Below, in pieces: positions 4,046 to 24,253 of a stretch of 24,419 nt of DNA. The notes below the pieces were generated by a model. It did no database searches and was not told the DNA's origin. It saw only the letters and a list, made by a program, of their open reading frames with translations. The stretch's first letter is position 1; every line of letters starts with the position of its first letter. Source of the stretch: Planctomycetaceae bacterium (GTDB lineage Bacteria > Planctomycetota > Planctomycetia > Pirellulales > Thermoguttaceae); NCBI GenBank assembly GCA_031288765.1, contig JAITQV010000483.1, positions 1-24,419 of the forward strand. The letters are read 5' to 3'. A program made the translations under genes and the position numbers.

Positions 4046-4277
4046 GAATCTTAACCCCGCACGGGGTGTGATGTGCATAACCGGCGGTGAAGCGCAGCGC
4101 AACCGCCGGATCAGAATCCCCAATATCATAAAGCCCCGCATGGGGCGAGATTATCAATCAACACAACCATAATCTCGTCCCTGCGGGACTTTGTGAGGAG
4201 AGGGACATCTGATCCGTAGGTTGCGCTTCGCTCCACCTACGGTTATGCACATCTCGTCCCTTGCGGGACTAAGATTC
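4046..4277. repeat. 232-bp nested imperfect palindrome (REPIN/MITE-like)
   Basis: 70-nt arms 4046-4115 and 4208-4277 are inverted copies; inner inverted pair 4131-4154 / 4169-4190; each arm carries its own hairpins. Confidence 0.88.
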
Positions 4278-4348: not shown

Positions 4349-5224
4349 ATGACGAACAACAACTTATTTATTACGTCTATTTCTATTTTTATTGTTATCA
4401 ACGTAATCGGTTACGGACACAACAACACTGCCGCAAACACTGCCGCAGAATCTGTTTTAAATATTCCTGATGATGTGATTGTACTTGAAGGGCATACCGG
4501 TGAAGTAAGTTCCGCCGTCTTTTCCCCCGACAGTAAAAAAATTGTTACTGCAAGCTGGGATAAAACCGCGCGGATTTGGGATGCGGCAACAGGAAAAATA
4601 TTACAAAAACTCGAAGGACATACCAAAGCAATAAATTCCGTCCTTTTTTCTCCCGACGGCAAAAAAATTATTACGGCAAGCCGTGATACAACCGCCCGGA
4701 TTTGGGAGGCGGAAACAGGGAAAGAATTACAAAAACTCAAACATGACGATTATGTACGATTGGTTGCGATTTCCCCCGACAGTAAAACAATTCTGACGAC
4801 AAGTTTGGATTACACGGCGCGGGTTTGGGATGCGGCGACAGGGAAAATATTAAAAAAACTTGAAGGACATACCGATTCCATTGATTTTATTTCTTTTTCT
4901 TCTAACGGCAAAACGATTCTTACGGTGTGTTGGGACAAAACCGCGCGGATTTGGGATGTATCAACGGGAAGGGTATTACAAAAAATTGACGGTTATACGG
5001 ATCATTTTTCACGGGCTACAATTTTTTCACCCAACGGCAGAACATTTATTTTATTGAGTTTGGACAACAGTGTACGGGTTTGTGATGGGGAGACGGGCAG
5101 GGAATTACGAAAGCTTGAGGGTCATACGGGGGCGGTGTTATCGGCTGTTTTTTCTTCTAACGGCGAAAGGGTAGTTACGGCGAGTTGGGACAAAACCGCC
5201 CGTATCTGGAATCTAAAAAGATAA
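4349..5224 (+). CDS. WD40-repeat beta-propeller protein with N-terminal hydrophobic segment
   Basis: Six repeats of the type LEGHT...VFSPD.K.I.TASWDKTARIWD..TG; N-terminal hydrophobic stretch FITSISIFIVINVIG. Confidence 0.93.
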   Translation: MTNNNLFITSISIFIVINVIGYGHNNTAANTAAESVLNIPDDVIVLEGHTGEVSSAVFSPDSKKIVTASWDKTARIWDAATGKILQKLEGHTKAINSVLFSPDGKKIITASRDTTARIWEAETGKELQKLKHDDYVRLVAISPDSKTILTTSLDYTARVWDAATGKILKKLEGHTDSIDFISFSSNGKTILTVCWDKTARIWDVSTGRVLQKIDGYTDHFSRATIFSPNGRTFILLSLDNSVRVCDGETGRELRKLEGHTGAVLSAVFSSNGERVVTASWDKTARIWNLKR

Positions 5225-5232
5225 GCAACCGT

Positions 5233-6216
5233 TTAGTTAATATCGCTAACGGAAAATATATTGCGGCAATATATTGCGGGTTGATTGGTATTGGGGGGCG
5301 GATCGTTAATATTGATGGGCGTCGGCGTAAACCCCAACACAATAAACCCCAATATGCCCCAACCAAGAATCCGGCGTAACAGTGTGAGTTTTATTTTTTC
5401 GTCGGCGGTGGGCGGGTGTGTAATTCCAATCCACGCAAGCAGTATTAAAATCAACGACCAATGCCATAACCGAAACCCTATCACCAGAATAATCACCGCA
5501 CCAAAAACCACCCATGAAATACCCGTGGCACGGCGACCTAACAACGCATAAAAAACATGTCCGCCGTCGAGTTGTCCGAACGGCATCAGGTTGAGGGAAG
5601 TCAGAAACAACCCAACCCACCCCGCCAAACCTACCGGATGAAGATATAAAACAACATCGGGAGGTGTTGCCCCGAAAATCCAGTAAACCATTGATTGAAA
5701 CAACAACGGATTGCCAAACGTTATGTCCCCGCCAACCGACACCGGTACAAAATACGACCACTTAATTCCATAATAAAGACAAAACATCGTCGGAATAAGA
5801 CCGGCAAGCGGACCGGAAATCCCAATGTCAAACAACGCACGGCGGTTGGGAATACGTCCGTCCATTGCTATCACCGCACCAAGCGTCCCAAAAGGTCCAA
5901 CCGGCATGGGAATAAAATACGGAAGACTGCAACGAACCCCATACCGCTGCATTTGAATAAAATGCCCCAACTCATGGCACGTTAAAATCAACATCAGCGG
6001 CACAGAAAATAAAACCCCTTGGTAAAACTTTTGCCCGAAAATCTGCCACGCTTCCGCTGTTAATTCGCTGCCGGACAGGTTCAGTATCAGAAAAAGGCAA
6101 AACCGGTAAATTATATCGTTGTCAAGATCAAAACGTAAACCGGTTGTTGTAAGCCAGGTAACAAGGTAAAGTAAAAGAGGAAGTTGCCAGTAAATTCGGG
6201 AACGGTTCGATTGCAT
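5233..6216 (-). CDS. Site-2 protease family (M50) intramembrane metalloprotease
   Basis: HELGH (HExxH), IGISGPLAG, NLMPFGQLDGGH (NxxPxxxLDG); multiple hydrophobic segments. Confidence 0.93.
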   Translation of the reverse strand: MQSNRSRIYWQLPLLLYLVTWLTTTGLRFDLDNDIIYRFCLFLILNLSGSELTAEAWQIFGQKFYQGVLFSVPLMLILTCHELGHFIQMQRYGVRCSLPYFIPMPVGPFGTLGAVIAMDGRIPNRRALFDIGISGPLAGLIPTMFCLYYGIKWSYFVPVSVGGDITFGNPLLFQSMVYWIFGATPPDVVLYLHPVGLAGWVGLFLTSLNLMPFGQLDGGHVFYALLGRRATGISWVVFGAVIILVIGFRLWHWSLILILLAWIGITHPPTADEKIKLTLLRRILGWGILGFIVLGFTPTPININDPPPNTNQPAIYCRNIFSVSDIN

Positions 6217-6398: not shown

Positions 6399-6537
6399 CC
6401 GCACAAACCGCCGGATCAAGATCACGCTGATAATTTGCGAACTCGGAACCTTCAGTATATTGAACATACTATGCCGTTGCACTTCTGTCAATTGGTCGAA
6501 CATTTCAAAGAACCCTAACCGCCGAAAATTAATCGGT

Positions 6538-6643
6538 GTTAGCCGACAAATTTCTGTTTCCGCACGGCAATCGGAATCTTAACCCCGCAAGGGGTGTGAT
6601 GTGCATAACCGTAGGTGGAGCGAAGCGCAACCTACGGATCGGA
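6538..6643 (+). repeat. Solo-arm copy of the 4046-4277 element with shared upstream linker
   Basis: 106-bp near-direct repeat of 4010-4115; its hairpin CCGTAGGT-GGAGCGAAGCGCA-ACCTACGG is identical to the reverse complement of the right arm at 4213-4241. Confidence 0.88.
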
Positions 6644-6660
6644 ATTTCCAACCCGACAAA

Positions 6661-6910
6661 AGGTAGGCAACCGTTCGCCGATTTTGCGGTTAAAAATTCA
6701 CAAGGTAGGCAATCGTTCGCCGAAGGGCTTTCACCCAACGATTGCGTCGGCGTTAGCCGACAGCGAATTTGTACAATGTTGATTGCTTCGATTGCCTATC
6801 GGCAAGCGACCGTGGGTGAAAACCCTTCGGCGAAAGGTCGCCTACCTCTTAAATTGCGAATCATAAGGTAGGCAACCGCTCGCCGAACGATTGCGTCGGC
6901 GTTAGCCGAC
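6661..6910. repeat. Cluster of four REP-like copies (6661-6681 +, 6703-6761 +, 6791-6848 -, 6866-6910 +)
   Basis: AGGTAGGCAAYCGYTCGCCGA occurs three times on plus; a degenerate reverse copy ends in CCTACCTCTT at 6841-6850. Confidence 0.88.
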
Positions 6911-6927
6911 TGGGAATAAATTTGCCG

Positions 6928-7325
6928 CAAACGAGGGCAATCCCGCGGCAATCGGGGGCAATCCCAGGGCAAACGGGGGCAGATTTGCCACAACCGGGGG
7001 CAGATTCATGGCAAACGGAGGCAGATTTGCCACAAACGGGGGCAGATTTGCCACAAACGGGGGCAGATTCGTCACAAACGGGGGCAGATTCGTCACAAAC
7101 GGGGGCAGATTCATGCAAACGGGGGCAGATTCGTCACAAACGGGGGCAGATTCATGGCAAACGGGGGCAGATTTGCCACAAACGGGGGCAGATTTATCGC
7201 AAACGGGGGCAGATTTATCGCAAACGGGGGCAGATTTATCGCAAACGGGGGCAGATTTGCCACAAACGGGGGTAAGTTTACTACGAACTGGGGTAAGTTT
7301 GCAGCAATCGGGAACGAAATTAGTT
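6928..7325. repeat. 21-bp tandem array A, about 19 units, consensus CAAACGGGGGCAGATT + variable 5-mer
   Basis: Units read in register from 6928; variable tails TGCCA, CATGG, CGTCA, TATCG; one 20-bp unit at 7096-7115; degenerate units at both ends. Confidence 0.95.
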
Positions 7326-7366
7326 AATAGCGCCGCAAGCGGATTTCCTACCGCAATGGCAATAAT

Positions 7367-7416
7367 TCCGCATGCGACACGATTAATCATTCATTACTAA
7401 CTATTAACTATCAATT
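7367..7416 (+). repeat. Degenerate TCCGCATGCGA-(heptamer)n module
   Basis: TCCGCATGCGA then a 7-periodic run including ATTACTA ACTATTA ACTATCA. Confidence 0.55.
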
Positions 7417-8647: not shown

Positions 8648-10024
8648 ATGTCGGAGTTAATTATTAGTGTTTCCGGTTTGCGCGGTGTTGTCGGCGAAAC
8701 GCTGACGTTGGATGTTGCCATGCGTTATGCTGCGGCGTTTTCTGCGTCCATGCCGCCGGGAACTTTCGTCATAACCCGTGACAGCCGCCCAACCGGAACA
8801 ATGTTAACCGATGTTATTCACGCCATCCTGAATGCTTCCGGGCGTTCCACAATTGACGCCGAAATCGCCGCAACCCCCACAACCGGTATTTTGATTCGCC
8901 AATTCGGTGCTGTTGGCGGTATTCAAGTTTCCGCATCGCATAATCCCATTGAGTTTAACGGCATCAAACTGTTTTCCGGCGAAGGCAGGGTTATTCCCCA
9001 AACGTGCGGAAAAGATGTTTTGGAACATTACCGGAATGTGAAAACACAATGGGTTCCCCACGATCAAATCGGTTCCAGAACGCTTTGTAAAAACACCATT
9101 TCCGAACACCGTAAAGCAATTATGCAAACGGTTGATATTGAAGCGGTTGCCGGCAGGAAGTTTAAGGTTTTGCTTGATGCCAACCGCGGAGCCGGAGCAA
9201 TTCTTGGGGACTGGCTGCTCGAAGGGTTGGGCTGCGAATTGACCATTCTCGGCGAACAGCCCGACGGTCAATTTCAGCATACTCCCGAACCGACCGCCGA
9301 AAATCTTATTGATGTTTGCCGGCGTGTGAAAGAATCGGATGTGGACATTGCTTTTTGCCAAGACCCGGACGCCGACCGTGTTGCGATCATCGATGCCGAC
9401 GGTCGGTATGTCGGCGAAGAATACACAATAACGCTTTGTTTGGAACATCTCTTGCGAATCTCGGAAAATTCCCAACATCCGCATTGCAGGAAAAAAGGCG
9501 CTGTTGTTATCAACTGTGCTACGAGCCGGATGAACGAAGATATTGCGGAGCGGTATGGGGTTCCGGTTTTTCGGAGTGCGGTTGGCGAGGCGAATGTGGT
9601 TGATTTGATGCTTGAAAAAGGGGCAATGTTCGGCGGTGAGGGCAACGGCGGTCCGATTGATCCGCAAGTGGGTTTTGTTCGGGACAGTTTTGTCGGAATG
9701 GCGTTGATTCTTGACGCAATGGCGGCAACCGGAAAAACGGTTGCGCAGCTTGTTGACGAATTGCCGCATTATGCGTTAGTCAAGCGAAAAACCGGCGTCG
9801 AACTTTCCGAAGTTCCGGCAATTCTCGACAAAACTGCGGCAATGTTCCGGCATTTACCGTGCAATCGTTTGGACGGATTACGGATTGATCATGGAGATGC
9901 GTGGGTTCTTTTGCGCGGCAGCAATACCGAGCCGATTATTCGGATTTTTGCCGAAGCCCCAACCAATGATTATGCCAATCGTCTTTGTGATGAAATTGAA
10001 CGGATTGTTGCGTCGTCTTGCTGA
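8648..10024 (+). CDS. glmM: Alpha-D-phosphohexomutase (phosphoglucosamine mutase / PMM-PGM)
   Basis: Catalytic SASHNP, metal loop QDPDADR, sugar-binding GGEGNGG, C-terminal RGSNTEPIIR. Substrate specificity (GlmM versus PMM) is not resolvable from motifs. Confidence 0.88.
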   Translation: MSELIISVSGLRGVVGETLTLDVAMRYAAAFSASMPPGTFVITRDSRPTGTMLTDVIHAILNASGRSTIDAEIAATPTTGILIRQFGAVGGIQVSASHNPIEFNGIKLFSGEGRVIPQTCGKDVLEHYRNVKTQWVPHDQIGSRTLCKNTISEHRKAIMQTVDIEAVAGRKFKVLLDANRGAGAILGDWLLEGLGCELTILGEQPDGQFQHTPEPTAENLIDVCRRVKESDVDIAFCQDPDADRVAIIDADGRYVGEEYTITLCLEHLLRISENSQHPHCRKKGAVVINCATSRMNEDIAERYGVPVFRSAVGEANVVDLMLEKGAMFGGEGNGGPIDPQVGFVRDSFVGMALILDAMAATGKTVAQLVDELPHYALVKRKTGVELSEVPAILDKTAAMFRHLPCNRLDGLRIDHGDAWVLLRGSNTEPIIRIFAEAPTNDYANRLCDEIERIVASSC

Positions 10025-10061: not shown

Positions 10062-10736
10062 TTAGCGGGTGAAAACGGCAATTTCTGCCGGAGGATACGA
10101 CTTGACTTTATTGGGTAACGGCTTAATAGGAAGCATGTCAAAGTTAAACCGGTTGTCCGATTCAATAACAAACAACGACCCCAACGGCGCCGAATCAATA
10201 AGATGTTGAAGCATTTCGAGCATTTCGGTTTGGCGGCTGACGTAAAAATCGTAAGGCGGCGAACAAAATACAAGCCAAGGTATCTTTTGGGTTTTATCTG
10301 GACACGTAATATTTGAATACGGATGTTCTTCTTGGTTTTTTGCCCAGAAAAAGGCGTCGGTTTTTCGCACATCGCAAACATTCAGCAAGTCCAACGATTC
10401 AAGGTTCTGCCGCAGCAGTGCTGCTGTTGGAAAGTGGAGTTCGATAACAGTTGCGGAAACCGCTCCTCGGCTGATTGCTTCAATTGCCAACGCTCCGGTT
10501 CCGCCGAACAAATCAACCACATGACGTCCCCGAACTTCCGGACCAATCAAATTAAACACCGCTTCTCGAACCCGATCTTTCATGGGTCTTACTCTGTTGT
10601 CGCCGATATACAGCAACTTGCTGCCGCGAAACCGTCCGCCGATAATTCGCAAACCGAGTGGTTCTTTTGGGGCGGGTTTGCTGCCGGTAGAGCGGTTTTT
10701 GGTTTTTTCTGCTGATTGCAATGCCGATTGCGGCAC
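10062..10736 (-). CDS. rsmD: 16S rRNA m2G966 methyltransferase
   Basis: LRIIGGRFRG, RPMKDRVREAVFN, DLFGGTGALAIEAISRGA, SPPY (variant of DPPY). The true start may be further downstream. Confidence 0.9.
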   Translation of the reverse strand: MPQSALQSAEKTKNRSTGSKPAPKEPLGLRIIGGRFRGSKLLYIGDNRVRPMKDRVREAVFNLIGPEVRGRHVVDLFGGTGALAIEAISRGAVSATVIELHFPTAALLRQNLESLDLLNVCDVRKTDAFFWAKNQEEHPYSNITCPDKTQKIPWLVFCSPPYDFYVSRQTEMLEMLQHLIDSAPLGSLFVIESDNRFNFDMLPIKPLPNKVKSYPPAEIAVFTR

Positions 10737-10853
10737 AGGCGGAACAAAAACACCTTGATTATTATTGTCAATTTCAAAAAGTGTTTCTTTCCGGTTACGG
10801 AAGTTTTTTTTATTTTATTTTTTCATACGAACCTCAAGACATTAAAACGTAAC

Positions 10854-11073
10854 TGTCTATTTTTATTAACCACAGAATACACAGAACACACGGAAATTAG
10901 TAAATTGCTAAGATCACAATCTTATTTTTTGAGGATACAAAATGAAGACAATAACAAAAAAACATTTTGTGTCCTAATTTTTTATAAATAAATGAATCTT
11001 GAAGTTGTACGTAAACATTATTACTAATACCAATTCCGTGTATTTCGTGTATTCAACGGTTAATAAATAGACA
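10854..11073. repeat. Inverted-repeat pair with 9-bp internal periodicity around a 138-bp AT-rich spacer
   Basis: Arms 10854-10895 and 11034-11073; the 28-nt cores match at 22/28; left arm reads ACCACAGAA TACACAGAA CACACGGAA. Confidence 0.8.
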
Positions 11074-11078
11074 ATTAC

Positions 11079-11414
11079 TTATGCTTTTTTCCACTCAACA
11101 GTTACTGAAGTCGAAATTCCGCCGCGAGGTGTAAAAGACGCCGTTAATTTGATCCAACGAGGTTGAAGCAAATCCACTAAATCATCCAATATCCGATTCG
11201 TAATATTTTCATAAAAAATTCCCTCATTGCGGAATTGTTGAAGATACAACTTCAAACTCTTAAGCTCCACACAAAGATTATCAGGAATATATTGAAATGT
11301 TAACGTTCCAAAATCCGGTTGCCCCGTCTTCGGACACACCGAAGTAAATTCCGGACAAATAATCTCAATCAAATAATCCCGATTAGGATATGAATTGGTA
11401 AAAGTTTCAAGCAT
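11079..11414 (-). CDS. queF: NADPH-dependent 7-cyano-7-deazaguanine (preQ0) reductase, type I (short)
   Basis: [15 protein letters not shown] (catalytic Cys and Asp), QueF motif [16 protein letters not shown]. Confidence 0.95.
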
Positions 11415-11461
11415 TGTTTTTTTGTTTCTAATGTTAGTATTAAAGAGGTGATACTTATTGA

Positions 11462-11490
11462 ATTTCAGTAATATTTCAGTAATATTTCAG
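11462..11490 (+). repeat. 11-bp tandem repeat x2.6
   Basis: ATTTCAGTAAT ATTTCAGTAAT ATTTCAG. Confidence 0.85.
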
Positions 11491-11512
11491 CGGAATTTTC
11501 GTTAAAAGCCGG

Positions 11513-11561
11513 TCAAGATAAAGTCTCAACATAAAGTCTCAAGATAAAGTCTCAACATAAA
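11513..11561 (+). repeat. 13-bp tandem repeat x3.8 with alternating variants
   Basis: TCAAGATAAAGTC TCAACATAAAGTC TCAAGATAAAGTC TCAACATAAA, flanked by inverted GCCGG (11508) / CCGGC (11563). Confidence 0.88.
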
Positions 11562-11569
11562 ACCGGCAA

Positions 11570-12061
11570 TCACAAAGCCGACAACCGTTCGGCAAGAAGT
11601 TTGAGAGCCTCGCCGTCCAGACGAAATGTAGTCCAGTCTTCAACAGGATGACCGCCAAGTTTTTTGTAAAACGCAATACTATCGGTATTCCAGTCGAGCA
11701 CCATCCAATCCAAACGAAAACAACCGCGCAATCGGGCAATTCGCGCCAATTCACAAAAAAACATTGTTCCAATCCCCAACCCCCGAAACTGCGGACGTAC
11801 AAAAAGGTCTTCAATGTAAATTCCCGGCTGCCCGCGAAATGTCGAATAAGTAAAATAATATAACGCAAAACCAACCGTTGCCCCCTCATACTCCGCCAAC
11901 AAAACCTCAATCCGTTGCGAAGAAATCCATTCGTACAAAACCTCTTCCGTTATAAACACCGATTCCAAAAGATGTTCATACTCCGCAAGTTCCCGAATAA
12001 ACCGCAATACCAATGCCGTATCCTCCGAAACAGCAATCCGTATGATCGTTTTTTGGCACAT
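11570..12061 (-). CDS. GNAT acetyltransferase, diamine/spermidine N-acetyltransferase (SSAT)-like
   Basis: FIRELAEYE, YSTF.G..GIYIEDLFVRPQFRGLGIG (acetyl-CoA loop), VLDWNT.SIAFYKKLG. Confidence 0.92.
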   Translation of the reverse strand: MCQKTIIRIAVSEDTALVLRFIRELAEYEHLLESVFITEEVLYEWISSQRIEVLLAEYEGATVGFALYYFTYSTFRGQPGIYIEDLFVRPQFRGLGIGTMFFCELARIARLRGCFRLDWMVLDWNTDSIAFYKKLGGHPVEDWTTFRLDGEALKLLAERLSAL

Positions 12062-12083
12062 AAATTGTTCCTGAAATTGTTTA

Positions 12084-12533
12084 TCAATCGGAAGAAGAAA
12101 CGATCTCTTTCATGGCAATGTAAGGTCCCAAAGAACGGGTTTTCTCGACGATTTCCGTAATGAATTTCTGAAACTTTGCGCCTTCAGCGGCGGAAATCCA
12201 TGAGAAATGAACACGGTTTGTATCAATGCCAAGCGTGTTCAGTAACTCCCGAAACAGAATCCAACGCCTTCGCGCATGAAAATTACCGCTCGTGTAATGG
12301 CAGTCGCCCGGATGACAACCACTCACTAACACCGAATCGGCTCCGTTTTCAAAAGCTTTGATAATCAAATTAAAATCAATTCGCCCCGTACAAGGAAGAC
12401 GTATAATCCGTAAATTGGAAGGGTATTCAAGACGGCTTGTCCCGGCAAGATCAGCGCCTAAATACGTACACCAATTACAAACAAACGCAATTACTTTCGG
12501 TTCAAATTGTGTTGCAGTTGATTCGGCGGACAT
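12084..12533 (-). CDS. mvhD: MvhD/FlpD-type [2Fe-2S] hydrogenase/heterodisulfide-reductase iron-sulfur subunit
   Basis: FVCNWCTYLGADLAGTSR, RLPCTGR, GCHPGDCHY, RVHFSWISAAEG. Confidence 0.92.
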   Translation of the reverse strand: MSAESTATQFEPKVIAFVCNWCTYLGADLAGTSRLEYPSNLRIIRLPCTGRIDFNLIIKAFENGADSVLVSGCHPGDCHYTSGNFHARRRWILFRELLNTLGIDTNRVHFSWISAAEGAKFQKFITEIVEKTRSLGPYIAMKEIVSSSD

Positions 12534-12856: not shown

Positions 12857-14464
12857 TTACATTCCCGCTGAATTTGTTGACGCAGCCTGATAATCGGTCA
12901 TCCATCTTTTAACCGCAGCAACAGCGGCATCACGAACAATCATTGATTTATCGTTCATCAAATGTTTCAGCGTTTCGATGGATTCCTTCGTTAAAATCGC
13001 CGATAACGCCGAAATCGCAGCACAACGAACATTGGCTTCATCATCTGTTTCCGCCAGTTCAATTAAACGTTTTATAAATTGAGAACTCAAACCTGTTGCA
13101 AAAGCGGCAAGACACGCCGAAAGACGCCGAACCGGAATCGGTGAAAAAAGATCGTCCCGAATCACCGTCAACGTATTCGGATCAACAAGGTAAACATAAT
13201 GCCCCATTGTTTTGGCGGATTCCGCAGTCATCTGGTTGATCCGCGAAGTAAAAGTTTCAATATGAAATTCCGGCGTTGTTTCGTAAATTGCCTTTCGGAT
13301 TTCCGTTTCCCGCCGATTGATTAACTGCTCGAATTGCGTACTCAATTCTTTCACTTGACGGGATTTGAGAATACGGAACACCATTGACGCCGTTTCGGCA
13401 TCGGAATTATTGACGAACTTAAGCAGCATCGCATTGACATCATCGCCGACCAAATTACGTACCGCAACCGCCGCAGCACGGCGCGATTCCACCGACGGAC
13501 GCTCAAAAAAGAAACGATAAAGAGCCACCATCTGGTATTTGGGAAAACTGCTCGCCTGTAACAACTGAACCGCACACGGTTCCAATCCCTCAATCAATTT
13601 CGGCAAATTGGGATTCTTGGGAGTAAACCAGGCAAAAGACCGAAACCTCCTCAACGCCTCCTGAAATTCGGGCGCCGGATTCATACCGACAAATTCCAAC
13701 ATTTTACGCACAAAGAACGGATCAGACCGCGTTGCCAAAATCTCGTCAATCACCGCAGGACTGTCCGGATCACAAAAATAGCTGAGCAACAGCCTGATAT
13801 AACTTCCGTGCTGACCGTTGAGAAGCAAGTCTGATATCCGCTTTCCCGCCGGAGAACGGTGATCGTTGGCAAGAGTTAACATCGTTGCAAAATCCTTTTT
13901 CGTAATAATCAAAAGACTCTGCAGCAATTCGTCAATCCCGTGAACCGCATAACGCTTAACCGGTCCGTCCAATTGCTCGATAAACCATTCGCGGCGTTTA
14001 TCGAAATTCCGGCGTTCGGACTCGGAAGTGTTGAGCAGGTCGGCATAAAACAATTCCGCAAGTTGGAGAACCATTGTTCTCGATTCTTGGGCGCGTTTTT
14101 CGTTGGTTCCTTCCAGATTGGCGAGAACGGACGGAAGCGTTTCGTAAAGTTTATGCTCCAGAATAACAGCCGCCGCCGCTTCATGGAGAACATCGTTCTC
14201 ATTCCTGAACGCCGTGTCCGTCAAACGGAAAAGACGATCCCGCTGCAAGGATTTTGTCTTCAACCAATAGTCTTTGTCCTGAATAAAACACTTGAACAAA
14301 TTCAAATAAATCTCAGCGTCTTTCCTAAGATAAAGACTGTCAAAAGCCAGTGTGCGAATACGATCAACCGAATGACCAAGAAGTTTCAAAAGAATTTCAT
14401 TGGATGCCGGATTCGGGGATTTACCGAGAAATCGAATCGTTTTTTCCTGAAATTGCGTTGTCAT
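12857..14464 (-). CDS. Conserved alpha-helical protein with C-terminal HEAT-like repeats
   Basis: 535-aa open frame, helical composition, C-terminal ETDDEANVRCAAISALS and DKSMIVRDAAVAAV HEAT-type motifs. Confidence 0.75.
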   Translation of the reverse strand: MTTQFQEKTIRFLGKSPNPASNEILLKLLGHSVDRIRTLAFDSLYLRKDAEIYLNLFKCFIQDKDYWLKTKSLQRDRLFRLTDTAFRNENDVLHEAAAAVILEHKLYETLPSVLANLEGTNEKRAQESRTMVLQLAELFYADLLNTSESERRNFDKRREWFIEQLDGPVKRYAVHGIDELLQSLLIITKKDFATMLTLANDHRSPAGKRISDLLLNGQHGSYIRLLLSYFCDPDSPAVIDEILATRSDPFFVRKMLEFVGMNPAPEFQEALRRFRSFAWFTPKNPNLPKLIEGLEPCAVQLLQASSFPKYQMVALYRFFFERPSVESRRAAAVAVRNLVGDDVNAMLLKFVNNSDAETASMVFRILKSRQVKELSTQFEQLINRRETEIRKAIYETTPEFHIETFTSRINQMTAESAKTMGHYVYLVDPNTLTVIRDDLFSPIPVRRLSACLAAFATGLSSQFIKRLIELAETDDEANVRCAAISALSAILTKESIETLKHLMNDKSMIVRDAAVAAVKRWMTDYQAASTNSAGM

Positions 14465-14729: not shown

Positions 14730-15749
14730 TCAATGTTTGCAACAGCAACACCCGCCGCCGGACTTTTTGCCGCTGTTCAACATCTCGCGAACACCGTCCA
14801 GTTGTCCGGCACTGCCGAGAACATTATTTTTGTGGATAATGTATTCGGCGTAGGCTTGGATGAAGATTTTCCCCGGCGGACGAAGGTCGAAATTCGCCGG
14901 ATCATCACGGAATTGTTCACGGTGAATCGCACACCAAACCAAACGACCGTCGGTATCGATATTGATTTTGGTAACGCCGAGTTTGGCGGCGGGGAGATAT
15001 TGTTTTTCATCGACACCGCTGGCGTCTTTAAGTTTTCCGCCGGCATTGTTAATACGTTCCACCCATTCGTGCGGAACACTGCTGCTGCCGTGCATTACCA
15101 GCGGGAAATTTTTGGGGATTGCCTTTTGAATTTTTTCCAGCACATCGAAATGCAAACCTTGCTTTCCGGTAAACTTGAAGGCTCCGTGTGAAGTTCCGAT
15201 GGCGACCGCCAAGGAATCAACACCGGTTTTTTCGATAAATTCGGCAGCCTGAGCGGGGTCGGTCAATTTGACACTTCCGACCACATCTTCTTCGACTCCG
15301 CCGAGTTGCCCAAGTTCCGCTTCAACAACAATATTTTTAGCGTGGGCTTTATCGACGATTTTTTTCGTGATTTCGACATTTTTAGCAAATTCCTCATGGG
15401 AAGCGTCGATCATCACGGAGCTGTAAAATCCGCTGTTGATACAATCGCAGCAAGCTTCTTCGGTGCCGTGGTCGAGGTGAACCGCGAAAATTGCTTCCGG
15501 GAAGACCTCGTCGGCAGCGCGAATCAATGCTTCGAGCATACGTTTATCGCTGTACGAGCGGGCGCCGCGAGAGATTTGGATGATAAACGGGGCGCTGTTG
15601 GTTTGGTCGACGGGGTCGTCGTTTTTCGCTTTTTTACCGAGGTTCCCGCGGAACAGACCGACGGTTTGCTCGAGGTTGTTGATGTTATACGCTCCGATGG
15701 CGTATTTTCCGTAAGCGTGTTGAAACAAATCTTTTGTAGTAACAATCAT
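14730..15749 (-). CDS. fba: Class II fructose-1,6-bisphosphate aldolase
   Basis: VHLDHG, SSVMIDAS, VEAELG, LAVAIGTSHG, PLVMHGSSS, KINIDTD. Confidence 0.96.
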   Translation of the reverse strand: MIVTTKDLFQHAYGKYAIGAYNINNLEQTVGLFRGNLGKKAKNDDPVDQTNSAPFIIQISRGARSYSDKRMLEALIRAADEVFPEAIFAVHLDHGTEEACCDCINSGFYSSVMIDASHEEFAKNVEITKKIVDKAHAKNIVVEAELGQLGGVEEDVVGSVKLTDPAQAAEFIEKTGVDSLAVAIGTSHGAFKFTGKQGLHFDVLEKIQKAIPKNFPLVMHGSSSVPHEWVERINNAGGKLKDASGVDEKQYLPAAKLGVTKINIDTDGRLVWCAIHREQFRDDPANFDLRPPGKIFIQAYAEYIIHKNNVLGSAGQLDGVREMLNSGKKSGGGCCCCKH

Positions 15750-16477: not shown

Positions 16478-16581
16478 AATTTGTGGGGAGTTGGCAGTGG
16501 AATAATGTGGGGGTGAAAAATTTTTCGCCTCTGCCGACAGCGGGATTTACGGTTTTTGGGATTGTAAATCAAAAGATCGGC

Positions 16582-16976
16582 GAACATTTGCCGACCTGCA
16601 TCGCAAAACAGATAAAAGTGTTAGCGAGTTTACCGGAGGTTTCGGCGAGTTTACCGGAGGTTTCGGCGAGTTCGCCGGAGGTCTTGGCGAGTTCGCCGGA
16701 GGTCTTGGCGAGTTCGCCGGAGGTCTTGGCGAGTTCGCCGGAGGTCTCGGCGAGTTCGCCGGAGGTCTCGGCGAGTTCGCCGGAGGTCTTGGCGAGTTCG
16801 CCGGAGGTCTCGGCGAGTTCGCCGGAGGTCTTGGCGAGTTCGCCGGAGGTCTTGGCAAGTTCGCCGGAGGTCTCGGCAAGTTCGCCGGAGGTCTCGGCGA
16901 GTTCGCCGGAGGAAATTGGTAGATACCAAAAAAGAATTGGTACCTACCGGAAAGCAATTACTGTGTACCCCAAAGC
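16582..16976. repeat. 21-bp tandem array B; core 16624-16912 (about 14 units of GCGAGTTCGCCGGAGGTCTYG) with degenerate in-register flanks
   Basis: Units read in register from 16624; AATT...TACC...AAAG recurs at 16914, 16935 and 16956; TTTGCCG at 16587 is in register with TTCGCCG. Confidence 0.95.
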
Positions 16977-17066
16977 GGTAATTTTTCTCAAATTGAGATT
17001 AAAAAAACATTCCGCTGAATAATTACCCAATAATTTCAGAGGGTTTAGAGATTGACGATTCTCCGT

Positions 17067-17105: not shown

Positions 17106-19160
17106 TTAGGTTCGTAATTGGAATTGCGCGACCAACTGCTGCAACCGGCTTGCCATATCACTCATCTCATTGGCAGCACTCGCCGATTCTTCGGCAGCCG
17201 CCGTGTTTTGCTGTGTTACCGCATCAATTTGCTGAAGACCAATCGTTACCTGCGTAACTCCCTGAGCCTGTTCATTACTCGCTTCGGCAATCCCCGAAAC
17301 CAAACCGGTTGTTTGCCGAATCTGCTCAACTATCGTATTAAGAACTTCCGCTGTGTGTGTTGCCACTTCACCGCCCTTGTGAATTTCATTGCCGCTGGTT
17401 GAAATCAAATCGGTTGTTTCTCTTGCGGCTTTAGCACTTCGAGCGGCAAGATTTCGGACTTCCTCCGCCACAACCGCAAACCCCTTGCCGTGAACACCCG
17501 CCCGCGCCGCCTCCACCGCCGCATTCAACGCCAACAAATTCGTCTGGAACGCAATATCGTCAATCACTTTAACCACCCGCTGAATCTCATTCGAATTTTT
17601 AGTAATCCGGTTCATTGCCTCATTCATTTCTTTCATTGCGTTTTGACCGTCCGCTGCGGCGTGAGTTGCTTTTTGAGCGAGGTCGCGAGCCTCCGAAGCA
17701 CTTTGGGCGTTTGCTTTTGTTTGGCTGCTGATTTCACTCATGGACGCCGTGATTTCCTCAAGACTGGCTGCGGATTCCTGCGCCCCGCTGGACAAAGTCT
17801 GCGCGGCAGACGAAACCTCTCCGGCTCCGGTCGTTACCTGCTTAACACTTTCATCGATTTGCAGAAGAGTGCTGTTGACCTGACTCAACATCTTGGCAAG
17901 ATTCAAATTCATCGAATCCAGCTCGCTCTTTTCCTTAACATCAACCCGCCAATTCCCGTCCGCCAATGCAGTTGCCATTGTGTCAATCGTTTTGTAATCA
18001 TTCAGCACCGAATTTCCTACATGCGCCATTCCGCCGATTTCGTCTTGCCGGTTTAGCAATTCATGCGGAATTTCCACATTCAAATCGCCTTCCAAAACAA
18101 CTTTTTTAAGTGTTTCCATTACTTTTGAAAGTCCGGTTGTAATATTCCGGCTCAGAACAAAACTGAAAACAAGACCAAGAACAAACGCAAAAAACGACGT
18201 AACCGGAATAACCGCCAACATAAACCGGCATGTACTTACCGAATCACTCTGAATTTGCTCAACCTGTTTGGTCAGGCGTGTGGTGATGTCGTTTCTGAAT
18301 GTTTCCATATCGGTGATTTTTTTTGCTTGTTCGGCATCAATATCACTTTGTTCTTTAAGATAATTAACATTGTTTGCGAAAATTGTTTCCCACTCTTTAA
18401 GCACCGTATCAATTTCTGCGGCGGCGGTTTTACCGGCGTCGGTGGTTAATTCGGATTTGACGATTTTCAGTTCGGCACGCAAGTCCGCCAAATTCTTGTT
18501 AATATTTTCCGTAATAGCGGTTTTGTTTTTGGGGTCTATTTCCGAAAGATATTGATAAAAGAAACGGCGAAGTCTTGCGAAGGTGGTGGAGGAATGATTG
18601 ATTTGTTTTAATTGGATGGATCGTTTTTCGGAAAAATAAAGATGTTGATCGATTTCTTTTGCTTCTTCGGGCGTTTTCATGGCGTTTTCAATCAGATCGG
18701 AGAGTGCGGTCAAATTTTGGCTGATGGAGTTGGCATGTTCTTTTAAAATGTCAACTTCTTTCACGCGATTATCTTCAACCACATACCAACGTTCGTCCAG
18801 ATCGGCAAATCCTTTGTAAGCGGTTACGAGGTTATCGAGAATTTCCTGTTCTTCGTTTTGGAGGAGCGGTTTTGTTTCTTTGGCGATATCCTGAAGTTTT
18901 TGATCATATTCTTTTCGGTTTTCGGAATATTTTCTATCGCGATAGATGATGCCGTTAAGAGCGGCAATCTGTGCATGGAACATCGTATTGCGAATTTCGA
19001 CGATTCGCTGTTGGATGTTTTCCATGTTAATGACATTGTGGGTGGCGTCGGCGCTGCGGGACAATCCCCAGTAACCGCAAAATGCAACCAACAGCAACAA
19101 CAATAAAACAAACAAAAATCCTGCAAACAGTTTTTTTTCTATTTTGAATTTGTTCAACAT
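17106..19160 (-). CDS. Methyl-accepting chemotaxis protein
   Basis: TM1, helical periplasmic sensor, TM2, HAMP region, signalling hairpin [37 protein letters not shown]; GGAG SD upstream. Confidence 0.96.
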
Positions 19161-19525: not shown

Positions 19526-19744
19526 TATTGTCTAAGTCTTGATTTTCAACCGTAAACAAGGTATAAGTAAATGAAACAATTTGGTTGGATTTGTGTTATC
19601 ATGTTGGGAATGATATTGGTCGATTTTATTTTTATTCCTGCGAATTTCGCGGACGAAACTCGCGGACGAAATAATCAGACAAAACAATCGGGCGAAATAA
19701 TCGGTTGAATCATTGCCGAAAATTTATTGGTTGCGGAACATTTT

Positions 19745-21181
19745 ATGCAGAAGTTTTATATTGAGACGGTGGGATGTCAGATGAATGTTTTGGACAGCGA
19801 ATTGGTTTACTCCGGTTTGGTTCAATCCGGTTTGGTTCCGGCAACAGACCGCCGCAATGCCGACATCATTCTGTTCAACACGTGCAGCATACGGCAACAC
19901 GCCGAAGATAAAATCTACAGCGCATTGGGAAGATTAAAACATTGGAAAGTATTGAAACCTTATGGGGTTCTCGGCGTGATTGGCTGCATGGCTCAGAAAG
20001 ATCAGAACATCATTTTTCAACGTGCGCCTCATGTTGATCTTGTTGTGGGTCCCGGTCAATTGGAACTGCTTCCCGAAACGGTTCACCAGCTTCTTGACGA
20101 AAAGTTACAGCGAACCTCCGAACCAAACCTTGTTGGTCGGGGAGAGGAATCCGGCAAAAAACTTTTGGTCAGTCTGAAACGCCGTGAACACCGTCATGCT
20201 GAAGTTGCGGGCAGTTTCCGTCTTTTCGATCCGGTTCGGAACCCCGAAGCACGGCTCAACCGTTTTCAGGCGATGGTTCGTATCATGTTCGGTTGTGATA
20301 AATTCTGCACGTACTGTATTGTTCCGTCGGTTCGGGGACCGGAGCAAAGCCGTCCGCCGCAGGAAATTCTTGACGAGGTACGGAGATTGGTTGGTCAGGG
20401 GGTGGTGGAGATCACATTGATTGGTCAGGCGGTTAATTCGTACTGTTATAAAGCGGGCGGAAAAACGGTATTGCTTTCGGATATTCTTTATTTGGTTTCG
20501 GCGGTTGAGGGGTTACGGCGGCTCTGTTTTGTGACGAATTATCCTCGCGGAATGGGGGAGGATTTACTTTGGGCGGTGCGGGATTTGCCGAAGGTTGCGG
20601 GGCATCTTCATGTTCCGGCTCAAAGCGGTTCGGACGGGGTGCTTGGGCGGATGAAAAGGAACTACTCCGCAACCGAATACCGCGAACTCGTAAACCGTAT
20701 CTATTCAACCATTCCCAACGCCTCTATAACCAGCGATTTTATTGTCGGGTTTTGCGGGGAGACGGACGGCGAGTTTTTGCAGACGGTTGAATTGGTGGAA
20801 GGCAGCCGGTTCAGGAACAGTTTTATTTTCAAATACAGTGAGCGACCCGGTACAAAATCGGCGGAACTTTATTCCGATGATGTTCCCGAGCCGGTTAAGA
20901 AGATGCGGAATCGTGTATTGCTGGCTATTCAGGACAAAATTTCGCTTGAGCAGAACCGGCAATTTATTGGTAAAACGGCGGAGATTCTTGTGGAGGGGAT
21001 AAGCAGGCAATTTGAAAACGGCGGGGTTCAGCTTTCCGGTCGTACTTCGTGTGGTCGGATAGTTGTTTTTGATGCGCCGGACGACCGCCTCACCGGTCAA
21101 TTCCTGAAATTGAATATTTATGATGCGGCTCCGTTTACGTTGTTTGGACGGCAACCCGAACCGGTTTTTCACGGGAAATAA
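19745..21181 (+). CDS. miaB: tRNA (N6-isopentenyl-A37) methylthiotransferase
   Basis: ETVGCQMN, NTCSIRQHAE, GCMAQ, radical-SAM CDKFCTYC, HLHVPAQSGSD, DFIVGFCGET, C-terminal TRAM domain. ATG at 19745 preferred over TTG at 19727. Confidence 0.96.
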   Translation: MQKFYIETVGCQMNVLDSELVYSGLVQSGLVPATDRRNADIILFNTCSIRQHAEDKIYSALGRLKHWKVLKPYGVLGVIGCMAQKDQNIIFQRAPHVDLVVGPGQLELLPETVHQLLDEKLQRTSEPNLVGRGEESGKKLLVSLKRREHRHAEVAGSFRLFDPVRNPEARLNRFQAMVRIMFGCDKFCTYCIVPSVRGPEQSRPPQEILDEVRRLVGQGVVEITLIGQAVNSYCYKAGGKTVLLSDILYLVSAVEGLRRLCFVTNYPRGMGEDLLWAVRDLPKVAGHLHVPAQSGSDGVLGRMKRNYSATEYRELVNRIYSTIPNASITSDFIVGFCGETDGEFLQTVELVEGSRFRNSFIFKYSERPGTKSAELYSDDVPEPVKKMRNRVLLAIQDKISLEQNRQFIGKTAEILVEGISRQFENGGVQLSGRTSCGRIVVFDAPDDRLTGQFLKLNIYDAAPFTLFGRQPEPVFHGK

Positions 21182-21289
21182 ACGCAAAAAAGTCAAAACC
21201 CGTCAATTAACCGCCCGAAAAGCGGTTGTCTGCCTTTTCCTTACAAAACCGCAGAAAACCAACCATGAAACCCCAAAAATATCAAAAAA

Positions 21290-21490
21290 TGTCATACGAC
21301 AATTATCAATTGTCACACGACAATCGCCGGTTGTCATACGACAATCGCCGGTTGCCAAACGACAATCGCCGGTTGCCAAACGACAATTGCCGGTTGTCAT
21401 ACGACAATTGCCGGTTGTCGCACGACAATTGCCGGTTGTCATACGACAATTGCCGATTGTCACACGACAATTACCGGTTGTCGCACGACA
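21290..21490. repeat. 21-bp tandem array C, about 9.5 units, consensus TGTCATACGACAATTGCCGGT
   Basis: Units read in register from 21290; each junction forms GACAA-TTGCCGG-TTGTC. Confidence 0.95.
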
Positions 21491-21573
21491 TTTTTTGCAT
21501 TTTGCACGTTTGAATGCTTCAAAAAGATACAAATTCGACCAAAATTGCCGCAAAATAAAACAATCATTGGAAT

Positions 21574-21612
21574 AAATAGTTGATAATTGAGAGTGGATAG
21601 TTCGCATGCGGA
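21574..21612 (-). repeat. TCCGCATGCGA-(heptamer)n module
   Basis: Minus strand: TCCGCATGCGA ACTATCC ACTCTCA ATTATCA ACTATTT. Confidence 0.75.
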
Positions 21613-21640
21613 TTGCCGACCATGTGGATTGTTAATCAAG

Positions 21641-21757
21641 AGGTAGGCAATCGTTCGCCGAACGATTGCGTCGACATCAGCCGACAATGAATTTATGTCA
21701 TTTGGTTATTTTGGTTGCCTATCGGCAAGCAACCGCTACGGCGAGCGGTTGCCCTAC
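21641..21757. repeat. Two REP-like copies (21641-21685, 21713-21757)
   Basis: GTAG + perfect hairpin GCAATCGTTC-GCC-GAACGATTGC; the second copy shares TTGCCTATCGGCAAGC(G/A)ACCG with 6792. Confidence 0.85.
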
Positions 21758-22060
21758 GCTACTGTATTGACTAAAAGGCTTTCAGCCCTATTTTCAAGAC
21801 AGATGACTGACTGGATACAACTATTTTTTTAACTGCGAAACCCGTGAAACAAAACAAAGGACTGAATAATAGACGCAATAACGTTTCTTTTCTTGTACCG
21901 TGTCTTTTTTCGATTTTATAATAAGGAATTTCTAAAAATTTTGTTTTTTACAAGTCCGGCACTGAAAAAATGAATGTCCGTAAATTTTTTTCGGATTGGC
22001 GGATTAAAGATTCCGTTTTTAGGAATTTCAAAGAGTCATTTAGAAAATAAAGTCAAATAA

Positions 22061-24253
22061 ATGTTTCCTTTACAAACAAGCCCGAAAAGAAAAAGAGTAA
22101 ACCCTTACAGCTTACCCTTTTTTTTCCACAAGATGCCCTTAGAACAGTCAAATATGATTGATCCTCCTCCAGTAATGCGGTTTACACATCCGCTTCCGTA
22201 CGGCGCCATTCTGCATGATAACGGTGTTCAATTTGTTGTTGTCAGCCGGTTGGCAAAAGCGATGAAACTTCTTTTATATGAAAAAGTTACGGATACGGAA
22301 CCGTCCGATGTTATTCAGTTTAACCGCGAGGAAAACCGTTGGGGGCATGTTTGGTCTTTGTTTGTCAAAGGCTTGCAAGCCAAACAACTTTACCATTTTC
22401 AGGCGGAAGGTCCGTTTGAACCGGAAAAAGGTCTCCGGTTTGATGGACGCGCCCGTTTGATCGATCCTTACACCAAAGCCTTGGCGGGAACATTTTTACC
22501 GTCCGCCGACGGAATAATCCGTCCGCCGAAATGTGTTGTTATCGACGATGACGATTTTGATTGGCGAGGTGACCGGCATATCCGGCAAGACCTGTCAAAG
22601 TCAATTATTTATGAACTCCATGTCCGCGGTTTTACGCAATCGCCGTCCGGTGAAACAAACCACCCCGGAACTTATCTTGGTTTGATTGAAAAGATTCCTT
22701 ATTTGCAGGATTTGGGAATTACGGCGGTGGAGTTGATGCCGATTCATGAGTTTCCGATCTTGGGAAGCAACGGTCTGGAACCGAAAATCAAAAATTATTG
22801 GGGTTACGACACGATGGCGTTTTTTGCGCCGCACCGCGGTTACGCATACGGCAGGGAACCCGGCGCACAAGTCCGTGAATTTAAGGAAATGGTTCGCTCA
22901 TTTCATCAGGCGGGAATCGAAGTCATTCTCGATGTCGTGTTCAATCATACCTGCGAAGGCAACGAATTTGGACCGACACTCAGTTTCAAAGGACTTGACA
23001 ATCAGATTTATTACATGCTTGACCGCGGGCAGTATTACAAAAATTACAGCGGCTGCGGGAACACGGTGAACGGTAATCATCCGATTGTCCGTGAAATGAT
23101 TTTCAATTGTCTCCGGCATTGGGTACACAATTATCATATTGACGGTTTCCGTTTCGATTTGGCGTCCATTTTAAGCCGCGACCAATCCGGCAATCTTCAA
23201 GCGAATCCGCCGTTAATCGAACAAATTTCGGAAGACCCGCTGCTCGCCGATACGAAAATTATTGCGGAGGCGTGGGATGCTGCCGGAGCGTATCAGGTGG
23301 GGTCGTTTGGGGCTTACGGACTCGGCTCGCAACGCTGGGCGGAATGGAACGGTAAATACCGCGACGATATCCGGCGTTTTTGGCGCGGCGATCAGAATAT
23401 GACGGGGGCGTTGGCGACACGTCTTTCCGGATCAAGCGATTTGTATTCCCACAGCGGGCGGCATCCGCAAAACAGCATCAATTTCGTAACCGCCCACGAC
23501 GGCTTTACAATGAACGATCTTGTTTCGTATAATTACAAACACAACGAAGAAAACGGCGAACAAAACCGCGACGGGGAAAATCATAATTGCAGCTGTAATT
23601 ACGGAGTGGAAGGACCGACAACAAACCGTGAAATTGAAACGGTACGGAACCGCCAGATTAAAAATATGATGGCAACACTTCTTTTGAGTCAGGGAGTTCC
23701 GATGCTTTCCGCCGGAGACGAAGTCCGCAGAACTCAACGCGGTAACAATAACGCATATTGTCAGGACAATGCGATTTCGTGGTTTGATTGGCGGCTTCTC
23801 AAACGGCACGGCGATATTCGGCGTTTTGTCAGTGAGCTGATACGGTTTCGCAAAAAGGAAGTTGCGGTACGGCAGCCCTATTTTATGACCGGTCAGCCGC
23901 GAACTCCCGGCGGATTACCGGATATAAGCTGGTATGGTGCGCTTGGCGGTGCGGTGCCTTGGAATAACAGTCTTGACCGGAGTTTAACCTGCCTGATTGC
24001 CGCTGTGCCGCCGACAACAGAACACGAAGGTTCGCTGTATCATCTTTTAATAATGTTTCACGGCGGCTGGGAACAGCGTGATTTTTGTTTTCCGGCGGTG
24101 TGTCAAAATTTTTCGTGGCGGCTTTTTCTTGATACTTCATCTGCAGCGCCCAACGATATTTTTCCCGAAGGAACAGGTCCAAAACCAAATCTCAATTCCG
24201 CATTAAAATTTATTCCCCATTCCATGCGGGTTTTCCTCGCGGAAACACAATAA
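22061..24253 (+). CDS. glgX: Glycogen debranching enzyme / isoamylase (GH13)
   Basis: IYELHVRGFT, NYWGY, DVVFNH, GFRFDLAS (nucleophile Asp), IIAEAWD (acid/base Glu), FVTAHDGFT, RTQRGNNNAYCQDN. Real start more likely at 22133 or 22154. Confidence 0.96.
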   Translation: MFPLQTSPKRKRVNPYSLPFFFHKMPLEQSNMIDPPPVMRFTHPLPYGAILHDNGVQFVVVSRLAKAMKLLLYEKVTDTEPSDVIQFNREENRWGHVWSLFVKGLQAKQLYHFQAEGPFEPEKGLRFDGRARLIDPYTKALAGTFLPSADGIIRPPKCVVIDDDDFDWRGDRHIRQDLSKSIIYELHVRGFTQSPSGETNHPGTYLGLIEKIPYLQDLGITAVELMPIHEFPILGSNGLEPKIKNYWGYDTMAFFAPHRGYAYGREPGAQVREFKEMVRSFHQAGIEVILDVVFNHTCEGNEFGPTLSFKGLDNQIYYMLDRGQYYKNYSGCGNTVNGNHPIVREMIFNCLRHWVHNYHIDGFRFDLASILSRDQSGNLQANPPLIEQISEDPLLADTKIIAEAWDAAGAYQVGSFGAYGLGSQRWAEWNGKYRDDIRRFWRGDQNMTGALATRLSGSSDLYSHSGRHPQNSINFVTAHDGFTMNDLVSYNYKHNEENGEQNRDGENHNCSCNYGVEGPTTNREIETVRNRQIKNMMATLLLSQGVPMLSAGDEVRRTQRGNNNAYCQDNAISWFDWRLLKRHGDIRRFVSELIRFRKKEVAVRQPYFMTGQPRTPGGLPDISWYGALGGAVPWNNSLDRSLTCLIAAVPPTTEHEGSLYHLLIMFHGGWEQRDFCFPAVCQNFSWRLFLDTSSAAPNDIFPEGTGPKPNLNSALKFIPHSMRVFLAETQ

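Follow-up and report, generated by a model that had tools for sequence, protein, structure and literature searches.

In ordinary genes of the termite-gut Planctomycetaceae bacterium studied here and of some of its closest relatives, stretches of about 10–60 codons consist almost only of codons ending in G or T or almost only of codons ending in A or C, and these stretches are real, heritable and lineage-specific. We describe them for a 24,419 nt long contig (JAITQV010000483.1 of assembly GCA_031288765.1), which is called the window in the following, and in particular for its gene miaB that encodes a tRNA methylthiotransferase. G and T are referred to as keto bases (K) and A and C as amino bases (m), and the class of a codon is scored at its third position. 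The resulting domains are specific to the keto/amino axis and to one clade, are much weaker outside genes, persist between species, are coupled to neighbouring bases that are determined by the protein and reach into the amino acid sequence. Over the whole genome to which the window belongs (G000) the effect is moderate, with an autocorrelation of about 0.03–0.05 and a tail of strongly patchy genes.

Keto and amino blocks within genes

An earlier examination of the letters of the window alone, in the following called the sequence-only reading, had reported abrupt flips between G/T- and A/C-ending codons inside single genes. The four hand counts on which it was based were found to be exact. They are included in the following list of the genes and blocks concerned.

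19727–21181, plus strand: miaB, assigned from its open reading frame (ORF) and translation; relatives are named MiaB and carry PF00919 and PF04055, some of them being listed under Planctomycetaceae bacterium and more distant ones under Thermoguttaceae or Pirellulales
20471–20620, plus strand: G/T-ending block in miaB, 45 of 50 codons; the run reaches from about 20450 to 20656
20660–20737, plus strand: A/C-ending block in miaB, with 5 of 26 codons ending in G/T
17106–19160, minus strand: methyl-accepting chemotaxis protein (MCP) gene, Pfam MCPsignal and 4HB_MCP_1; the patchiest gene of the window
2946–3947, plus strand: gene of the 3-keto-disaccharide hydrolase family, Pfam PF06439; significant patches
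5233–6216, minus strand: peptidase M50 gene, Pfam PF02163; flip near 5320–5410 on the third-position map
8648–10024, plus strand: phosphoglucomutase/phosphomannomutase gene (the mutase), Pfam PGM_PMM I–IV
9542–9613: G/T run in the mutase, 23 of 24 codons ending in G/T
8765–8884: A/C-rich stretch in the mutase, 11 of 40 codons ending in G/T
4349–5224, plus strand: WD40-repeat gene, Pfam WD40; patchiness within the null

As a measure of patchiness we used the autocorrelation of G/T at third positions summed over lags of 1–20 codons, which was compared to synonymous shuffles within each gene. In a stricter null the amino acid, the codon family and the following base were all kept (300 shuffles). 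For miaB z-scores of 7.4 and, under the stricter null, 5.4 were obtained, with none of the 300 shuffles reaching the real value. The MCP gene, whose third positions on the plus strand are A/C-rich up to about 18200 and G/T-rich past about 18270, provided z-scores of 9.6 and 8.8, the gene at 2946–3947 of 4.3 and 3.8, and the M50 gene, for which a flip near 5325 had been noted, of 2.4 and 3.1. According to these values the flips in all four genes go beyond a homogeneous codon-usage null. For the mutase the counts stand but their significance is marginal (z = 2.5; 1.8 under the stricter null, with 8 of 300 shuffles reaching it), while the flip proposed between repeats 1 and 6 of the WD40 gene fails, with z-scores of 0.4 and −0.6.

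When the 1,767 ORFs of at least 250 amino acids in the genome were analysed, the mean z-score on the keto axis was 2.06, with 27% of the ORFs exceeding 3 and 10% exceeding 5. For the same ORFs the distinction of G/C from A/T at third positions (GC3) gave a mean z-score of −0.16 and the purine axis one of 0.47, i.e. null results, the third-position autocorrelation of the latter being about 0 beyond lag 1. Runs of 20 or more codons of like class were 7–15 times more common than expected (114 against 15 for G/T and 23 against 1.5 for A/C). The residual autocorrelation decreased from 0.07 at lag 1 to 0.037 at lags 2–3 and 0.014 at lag 10, and had vanished by a lag of 20 codons except for a gene-level component. 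Local blocks below gene scale, as had been claimed, are thus confirmed, but a typical block size of 70–300 bp is not: the decay length is about 8–10 codons, with a tail that extends to gene scale.

The base changes between the two contexts were seen in every codon family. From m to K context C falls 3–5 fold and G rises 2–5 fold, with smaller changes for A and T. C and G (GCC/GCG) are exchanged after a second-position C, and C and T after a second-position T; four-fold degenerate sites swap largely C and G, i.e. not only by transitions. At G-versus-C sites the local amplitude reaches about ±0.6. The synonymous first position of leucine follows the same local class. In agreement with the sequence-only reading the bias is strand-oriented and local and also affects the amino acids: with a local G/T context Lys, Thr and Asn become rarer and Val, Leu (TTR codons), Phe and Cys more frequent. 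No palindrome marked the switches between blocks (effects of at most 0.014; z = −1.2 for GGCC).

At the level of entire genes, the G/T fraction at third positions of the coding strand (GT3) had a mean of 0.556 and was overdispersed, with a standard deviation of 0.068 between genes compared to an expected 0.022. Adjacent genes were nearly uncorrelated (r = 0.11 on the same strand, −0.05 on opposite strands), from which the presence of a replichore-scale skew can be rejected. In intergenic DNA the patchiness is 3–4 times weaker and shorter-ranged. This holds for G000, where the keto autocorrelation at 6–30 nt is 0.054–0.032 for coding third positions versus 0.014–0.006 between genes, as well as for G010, a congeneric termite-gut Planctomycetota metagenome-assembled genome with a 3–4 times stronger pattern than G000, where coding third positions have 0.14–0.11 and intergenic DNA has 0.04, dropping to 0 by 15 nt. 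In 28 highly expressed genes of G000 the patchiness was 0.022, compared to 0.014 ± 0.007 in length-matched pieces, with a mean residual of −0.010. Their third-position use of A/C/G/T (.257/.210/.207/.326) was close to the genome average (.247/.198/.224/.331). Residue conservation was not linked to codon class (r = 0.01–0.04).

An artefact could in principle arise from chimeric assembly, a binning join, strand-specific sequencing damage or plain codon-usage noise. The window was taken from a fragmented metagenome bin (748 contigs, 4.39 Mb, 42% GC, about 77% completeness, depth of about 15x), of which it is the longest contig; among public reads its sequence was found in one run, a termite-gut metagenome. 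While such a bin invites caution, an independent assembly of the source run provided a single 4,334 nt contig of uniform depth (about 14x) that spans the MCP gene and miaB with only 4 differences. Furthermore, reading frames and proteins are intact with the bias being located at third positions, the pattern and in part even the same blocks recur in other bins of the genus, and both shuffle nulls are exceeded. A chimeric assembly or binning join, which had been named as a possible refutation, is thereby dismissed, and we give practically no credence to artefact or chance in general.

Lineage distribution and history of the blocks

To compare genomes, the K autocorrelation at third positions was averaged over lags of 2–10 codons.

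G010 (86 genes): 0.11
G006: 0.042
G000, G001, G014, G016 and G018: about 0.03
G005: 0.023
G002, G003, G012, G013 and G015: 0.01–0.016
G009, G011 and G017, of the same genus: about 0
G029, G026 and three other families of the order: about 0
E. coli: about 0

G/T-ending codons follow one another in runs of more than 30 in G010, and A/C-ending codons in runs of 24–28. The blocks inspected in this genome span all codon positions: a membrane helix forms a K block, while m blocks correspond to a hydrophilic loop and to a tail rich in Thr, Asn, Pro, Lys and Gln. The sign also depends on the position within the gene. The position residual is +0.053 in the first decile, −0.149 in the last and −0.19 in the final 20 codons; the gene-end effect of G000 is small (−0.024 in the last decile). 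In most genes of the G010 loci L111, L112 and L137–L156, A and C strongly prevail at every codon position over the final 20–60 codons.

The nearest congeners of G000 (G014, G015 and G005) have 82–86% protein identity and 63% identity at four-fold sites, and blocks are partly shared at this divergence. The lagged third-position class correlation between species amounted to 0.66 of the value within species, whereas 0.40 would be expected from retained sites alone. It follows that later substitutions kept to the blocks. No persistence beyond site identity was left when G000 was compared to the more distant G006.

Individual changes were polarised in 12 genes of the window against 3–6 congeners, which yielded 486 changes private to G000, among them 119 A>G, 110 T>C, 46 C>T and 51 G>A. 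Despite the GC content of 42% they are thus mostly AT>GC transitions; in G014 and G005 the excess is opposite. The private changes agreed in sign more often than expected by chance, with a concordance of 0.15–0.2 for distances below 48 nt, 0.08 for distances up to 190 nt and 0.05 at larger distances, i.e. at gene scale. Runs tests were only mildly negative (mean z of −0.49), with striking runs in miaB and in the gene at 2946–3947, where 13 successive private changes are amino-ward. The K block of miaB is K-rich at third positions in all congeners, and G000 added keto-ward private replacements to it (AAA>GGG, CAA>TGG, CAG>TTG and ACA>GTA). The m block of miaB was lengthened by T>C and G>A changes private with respect to six congeners, including GAC>AAC, ATG>ATA and GTT>GCC.

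The blocks are no more diverged than their surroundings: over 397 windows block extremeness did not depend on the identity to relatives (r = 0.015). In sliding windows the best identity to relatives ranged from 0.62 to 0.96, with no near-identical tracts and none tied to blocks. The lack of unusual identity and of a link to divergence indicates that the blocks are old and maintained rather than fresh imports or hypermutation tracts.

Possible causes of the blocks

The explanation that we favour, although tentatively and with less than even confidence, is a fixation bias on the keto/amino axis that matches each site to its neighbourhood and is linked to the ability of the transcript, as a single strand, to form pairs. 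Silent sites would be arranged in slowly evolving domains of about 10–60 codons, in which the keto or the amino class prevails on the coding strand and which a persistent local fixation bias maintains. New substitutions would tend to match the domain, including replacements at unconstrained residues, such that free sites would gradually adopt the class that prevails around them, bases fixed by the protein included. A/C blocks would for example arise at hydrophilic loops or tails, and a G/T block at a membrane helix. The underlying force may be weak selection against local pairing, which perhaps became relevant after the genus lost its cold-shock-domain RNA chaperones. Since Watson-Crick pairs join a keto with an amino base, class-pure stretches cannot pair with themselves, and self-complementarity of a single strand appears to be the most plausible quantity that is being read. 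This strand is probably that of the mRNA, considering the faint pattern of intergenic DNA and the separate polarity of the 3' ends of G010 genes. We infer in addition that selection, rather than context-dependent mutation, would act on this pairing potential.

The coupling to protein-determined bases was clear in G010, where third positions correlated with the local first and second positions with r = 0.19–0.22 and a slope of about 0.9. When the first and second positions were taken from non-patchy orthologues as an instrument, the correlation was 0.119 compared to 0.187 with the genome's own positions, where about 0.105 is expected if the protein-determined part acts like the rest. The corresponding values for G000 were 0.029 and 0.072, and controls with the orthologues' own third positions gave 0.00–0.01. 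Bases that are fixed by the protein therefore help to set the class of the free sites around them. Regarding folding, the energy of seven G010 genes exceeded that of synonymous shuffles by +0.6 to +0.8 kcal/mol per 60–120 nt (z up to 4.2), i.e. these genes folded less well. In G000, G014 and the non-patchy relatives folding was stronger than in the shuffles (−0.85, −1.05 and −1.24, respectively; for G000 in kcal/mol per 120 nt). Within G000 patchier genes had less excess stability (r = 0.27; −0.46 against −0.99).

None of the 19 genomes of the genus (65–88% complete) yielded a cold-shock domain (PF00313), while 11 of 12 other families of the order have 1–8 copies each. This absence is a lead and not causal evidence, since it represents a single evolutionary event and some genomes without the domain are not patchy. 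DEAD-box helicases were considered as a further link, with one strong copy per genus genome and two or more elsewhere; this difference was too weak and the candidate was dropped.

A number of results weigh against the pairing explanation. The blocks of miaB leave its predicted folding unchanged (−30.57 kcal/mol for the real and −30.27 kcal/mol for class-permuted sequences), the folding-energy effect is small altogether, and the mRNAs of G000 and G014 still fold better than synonymous shuffles just as in non-patchy genomes; a genome-wide avoidance of structure in G000 was rejected on these grounds. Highly expressed genes have no codon bias and are not clearly patchier, such that selection on silent sites looks weak in this organism. 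The purine/pyrimidine axis is flat although it could lower pairing equally well, and G/T blocks outnumber A/C blocks although they permit G-U pairs. First and second positions explain only 0.5% of the third-position variance in G000 and leave the autocorrelation unchanged, so that amino acid context was discarded as the driver in this genome. G009, G011 and G017 of the genus, as well as G026, lack the cold-shock domain without being patchy, and the association with the domain at genus level counts as one event. Abundant palindromic repeats force a negative keto autocorrelation and thereby blur the comparison with intergenic DNA. Finally, a test in which the class pattern was kept in register lowered folding by about 1.7–2.0 kcal/mol compared to permuted or shifted patterns, but it was discarded as support: weakly patchy genes gave an equal value, from which it follows that the test reads amino-acid-specific codon preferences, a confounder that makes it unusable, and not blocks.

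Two further candidates for the origin of the flips were tried and rejected. A hairpin between the blocks of miaB was not supported by folding of the region 20560–20760 (z = −0.5), and no inverted repeats were found. A sawtooth chirality of the blocks was significant but tiny (step skewness of −0.02 to −0.05) and entangled with the positional trend along genes.

The main rival of the pairing explanation is local strand-specific mutagenesis, to which we assign a real but clearly smaller than even chance. Strand stretches that are persistently exposed or replicated in an error-prone manner would turn amino into keto bases, and selection would remove most replacements such that mainly a silent footprint remained; single-stranded exposure, error-prone gap filling with G-T mispairs and R-loops are conceivable routes. 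It agrees with the dominance of A>G and T>C among the private changes and their grouping by sign, with multi-base codon changes that are one-directional (AAA>GGG, CAA>TGG), and with the differences that separate the independent contig from the bin inside miaB: all three of them (20044, 20060 and 20200, within 157 nt) are T in the bin and C in the contig. The independence from expression, with highly expressed genes lacking codon bias, would also be expected, and as in known mutational skews G exceeds C where T exceeds A. Arguing against mutagenesis, the intergenic pattern is 3–4 times weaker and shorter-ranged, the sign in G010 varies with the position in the gene, third positions track protein-determined neighbours even if these are taken from orthologues of non-patchy genomes, blocks are not more diverged than other windows and four-fold sites exchange mainly C and G. 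A loss of mutS, mutL or ung, for which the sequence-only reading had suggested a check, did not apply, as MutS and MutL are present in the clade and uracil-DNA glycosylase (UDG) in 15 of 18 congeners; EndoV, which was not found, is missing as well from 9 of 12 non-patchy families. The inconspicuous divergence, the C-G swaps, the weak intergenic signal, the presence of repair genes and the partial sharing of blocks between species also speak against recent tracts of deamination or repair, the form of mutagenesis that the sequence-only reading had put forward as an example. We know of no process that fixes a strand asymmetry at a scale of 30–150 nt over a divergence that leaves about 63% of the four-fold sites identical.

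The other alternatives are considerably less probable. G/T-ending codons are read by wobble or extra tRNAs and A/C-ending ones by cognate G34/U34 tRNAs in a reading based on translation kinetics, where slow and fast stretches would assist co-translational folding or membrane insertion. This fits the far stronger pattern in coding regions, the match of membrane helices with G/T blocks in SecY and in a transporter-like gene of G010, and the blocks kept beyond site identity between close species; but the synonymous first position of leucine and the amino acid composition follow the same class, directional replacements are seen, highly expressed genes have the third-base composition of the genome average, residue conservation is not related to codon class and more distant orthologues do not share blocks. 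We therefore give it little weight. Slightly less credible still are signals related to Rho. Like Rho loading sites, A/C blocks contain much C and little G and lack structure, such that G/T gene bodies would resist Rho and A/C blocks at gene ends would promote termination. A loading site usually comprises about 80 nt, which is near the block size. The strongest response of C and G to the context and the A/C-rich last 20–60 codons of G010 genes are in line with this idea, which explains neither internal A/C blocks such as in miaB nor the like-with-like coupling to protein-determined bases and has to cope with the small gene-end effect in G000. The second proposal of the sequence-only reading, mosaic recombination with alleles shaped on the opposite replication strand, is highly improbable. 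Poorly conserved gene order among congeners would make orientation changes plausible, and homology confined to genes would suit the weak intergenic pattern. However, donors are lacking: there is no replichore-scale skew to supply them, and whole-gene G/T fractions only range from about 0.32 to 0.73 while blocks reach 0.9 or 0.15. With neighbouring genes uncorrelated, no identity breakpoints at blocks, no windows close to relatives and an extremeness unrelated to divergence, the proposal is largely refuted.

Returning to pairing, a more far-reaching version would be that the coding sequences of this clade sort themselves into domains of purely keto or purely amino bases through a penalty on intramolecular pairing of single strands. 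Such keto/amino loading would be the local counterpart, with either sign, of purine loading. We consider this version unlikely as it stands. The penalty could stem from the loss of the cold-shock-domain chaperones, or from mobile elements that seek hairpins; such elements abound in these genomes and would be harmful inside genes. If true, keto/amino loading would be a pervasive, previously unrecognised layer of constraint on silent sites in these bacteria.

Relation to known compositional asymmetries

Strand compositional asymmetry is textbook knowledge at the scale of replichores and genes, while two-signed, heritable domains of tens of codons that lie inside genes and steer amino acid replacements are outside this picture. 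A full-text literature search provided no description of keto/amino patches below gene scale. In replication-associated asymmetry the leading strand is rich in G and T (G>C together with T>A), with the mirror image on the other strand and effects on codon and amino acid use (PMC3269016, PMC5291525). The patches resemble it in that G and T rise and C and A fall together in all codon families; they differ in that the sign flips every 30–200 nt inside genes rather than at origin and terminus and that neighbouring genes are uncorrelated. Typical replichore skews are also far below the local amplitude of ±0.6.

With transcription-associated asymmetry, i.e. an excess of G+T on the coding strand, the patches share the tie to genes, the mean GT3 above one half (0.556) and, in G010, a 5' end that is richer in G/T than the 3' end. 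Unlike there, both signs occur within one transcript (miaB, the MCP gene, the M50 gene and others), the patches measure tens of codons and there is no increase in the 28 highly expressed genes. Purine loading (Szybalski's rule; Forsdyke) similarly yields transcripts that are poor in one Watson-Crick partner and therefore pair less with themselves and with others. It is uniform per transcript, whereas the loading seen here is local, of either sign and on the keto/amino axis, the purine axis being flat. Clusters of rare or optimal codons likewise cause an autocorrelation of codon classes along genes that is partly conserved in close orthologues. Here, in contrast, the class reflects base chemistry across all amino acids and not tRNA abundance or expression, non-third positions and amino acid use follow it, and highly expressed genes are without codon bias.

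If the blocks were mutational in origin, a novel local determinant of strand-specific mutation would exist in bacteria; if they were selective, silent sites would be collectively constrained through the tendency of the transcript to pair. In both cases the blocks affect tests of codon usage, dN/dS and horizontal transfer on such genomes. The extreme congener G010 constitutes a good test system.

Other features of the window and its genome

The window contains further genes that were assigned using Pfam.

1023–2351: FGE-sulfatase
11079–12533: QueF, a GNAT acetyltransferase and FlpD
12857–14464: HEAT-repeat protein
14730–15749: class-II aldolase
22061–24253: alpha-amylase family protein

ORF-like frames at 6902–7390, 16483–17022 and 21203–21607 are not genes but 21-bp tandem arrays with a G/T pattern of 7-codon period, which cause a peak at lag 21 in the raw keto autocorrelation. 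The segments 6421–7087, 10423–11089 and 21095–21761 have a summed contig depth of thousands in the source run, compared to about 15 elsewhere, and are interlinked by many contig joints; they are high-copy repeats that form branch points of the assembly graph. A nested palindrome of 232 bp at 4047–4276 is a multi-copy element, of which dozens of copies are found in G014 and G015 (71–82% identity, in both orientations) and a few in G005.

Neighbouring genes of the window are located on separate contigs in congeners (G014, G015, G005, G001 and G018), with few pairs being linked. Gene order thus seems to be poorly conserved within the genus, to which the fragmentation of the bins may contribute. 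In G001, G013 and G010 the match to miaB is broken by a single in-frame TAA, which could reflect a split gene, a pseudogene or an assembly error.

The palindrome GGCC is nearly absent from G000, with 334 sites in 4.4 Mb (observed/expected ratio of 0.03). Ratios were also low for CCWGG (0.30), GGWCC (0.40), AGCT (0.42), CTAG (0.40) and for CATATG and GTATAC (0.09). Unusual dinucleotide values were obtained for AG/CT (0.58), CG (1.50) and AA/TT (1.41).

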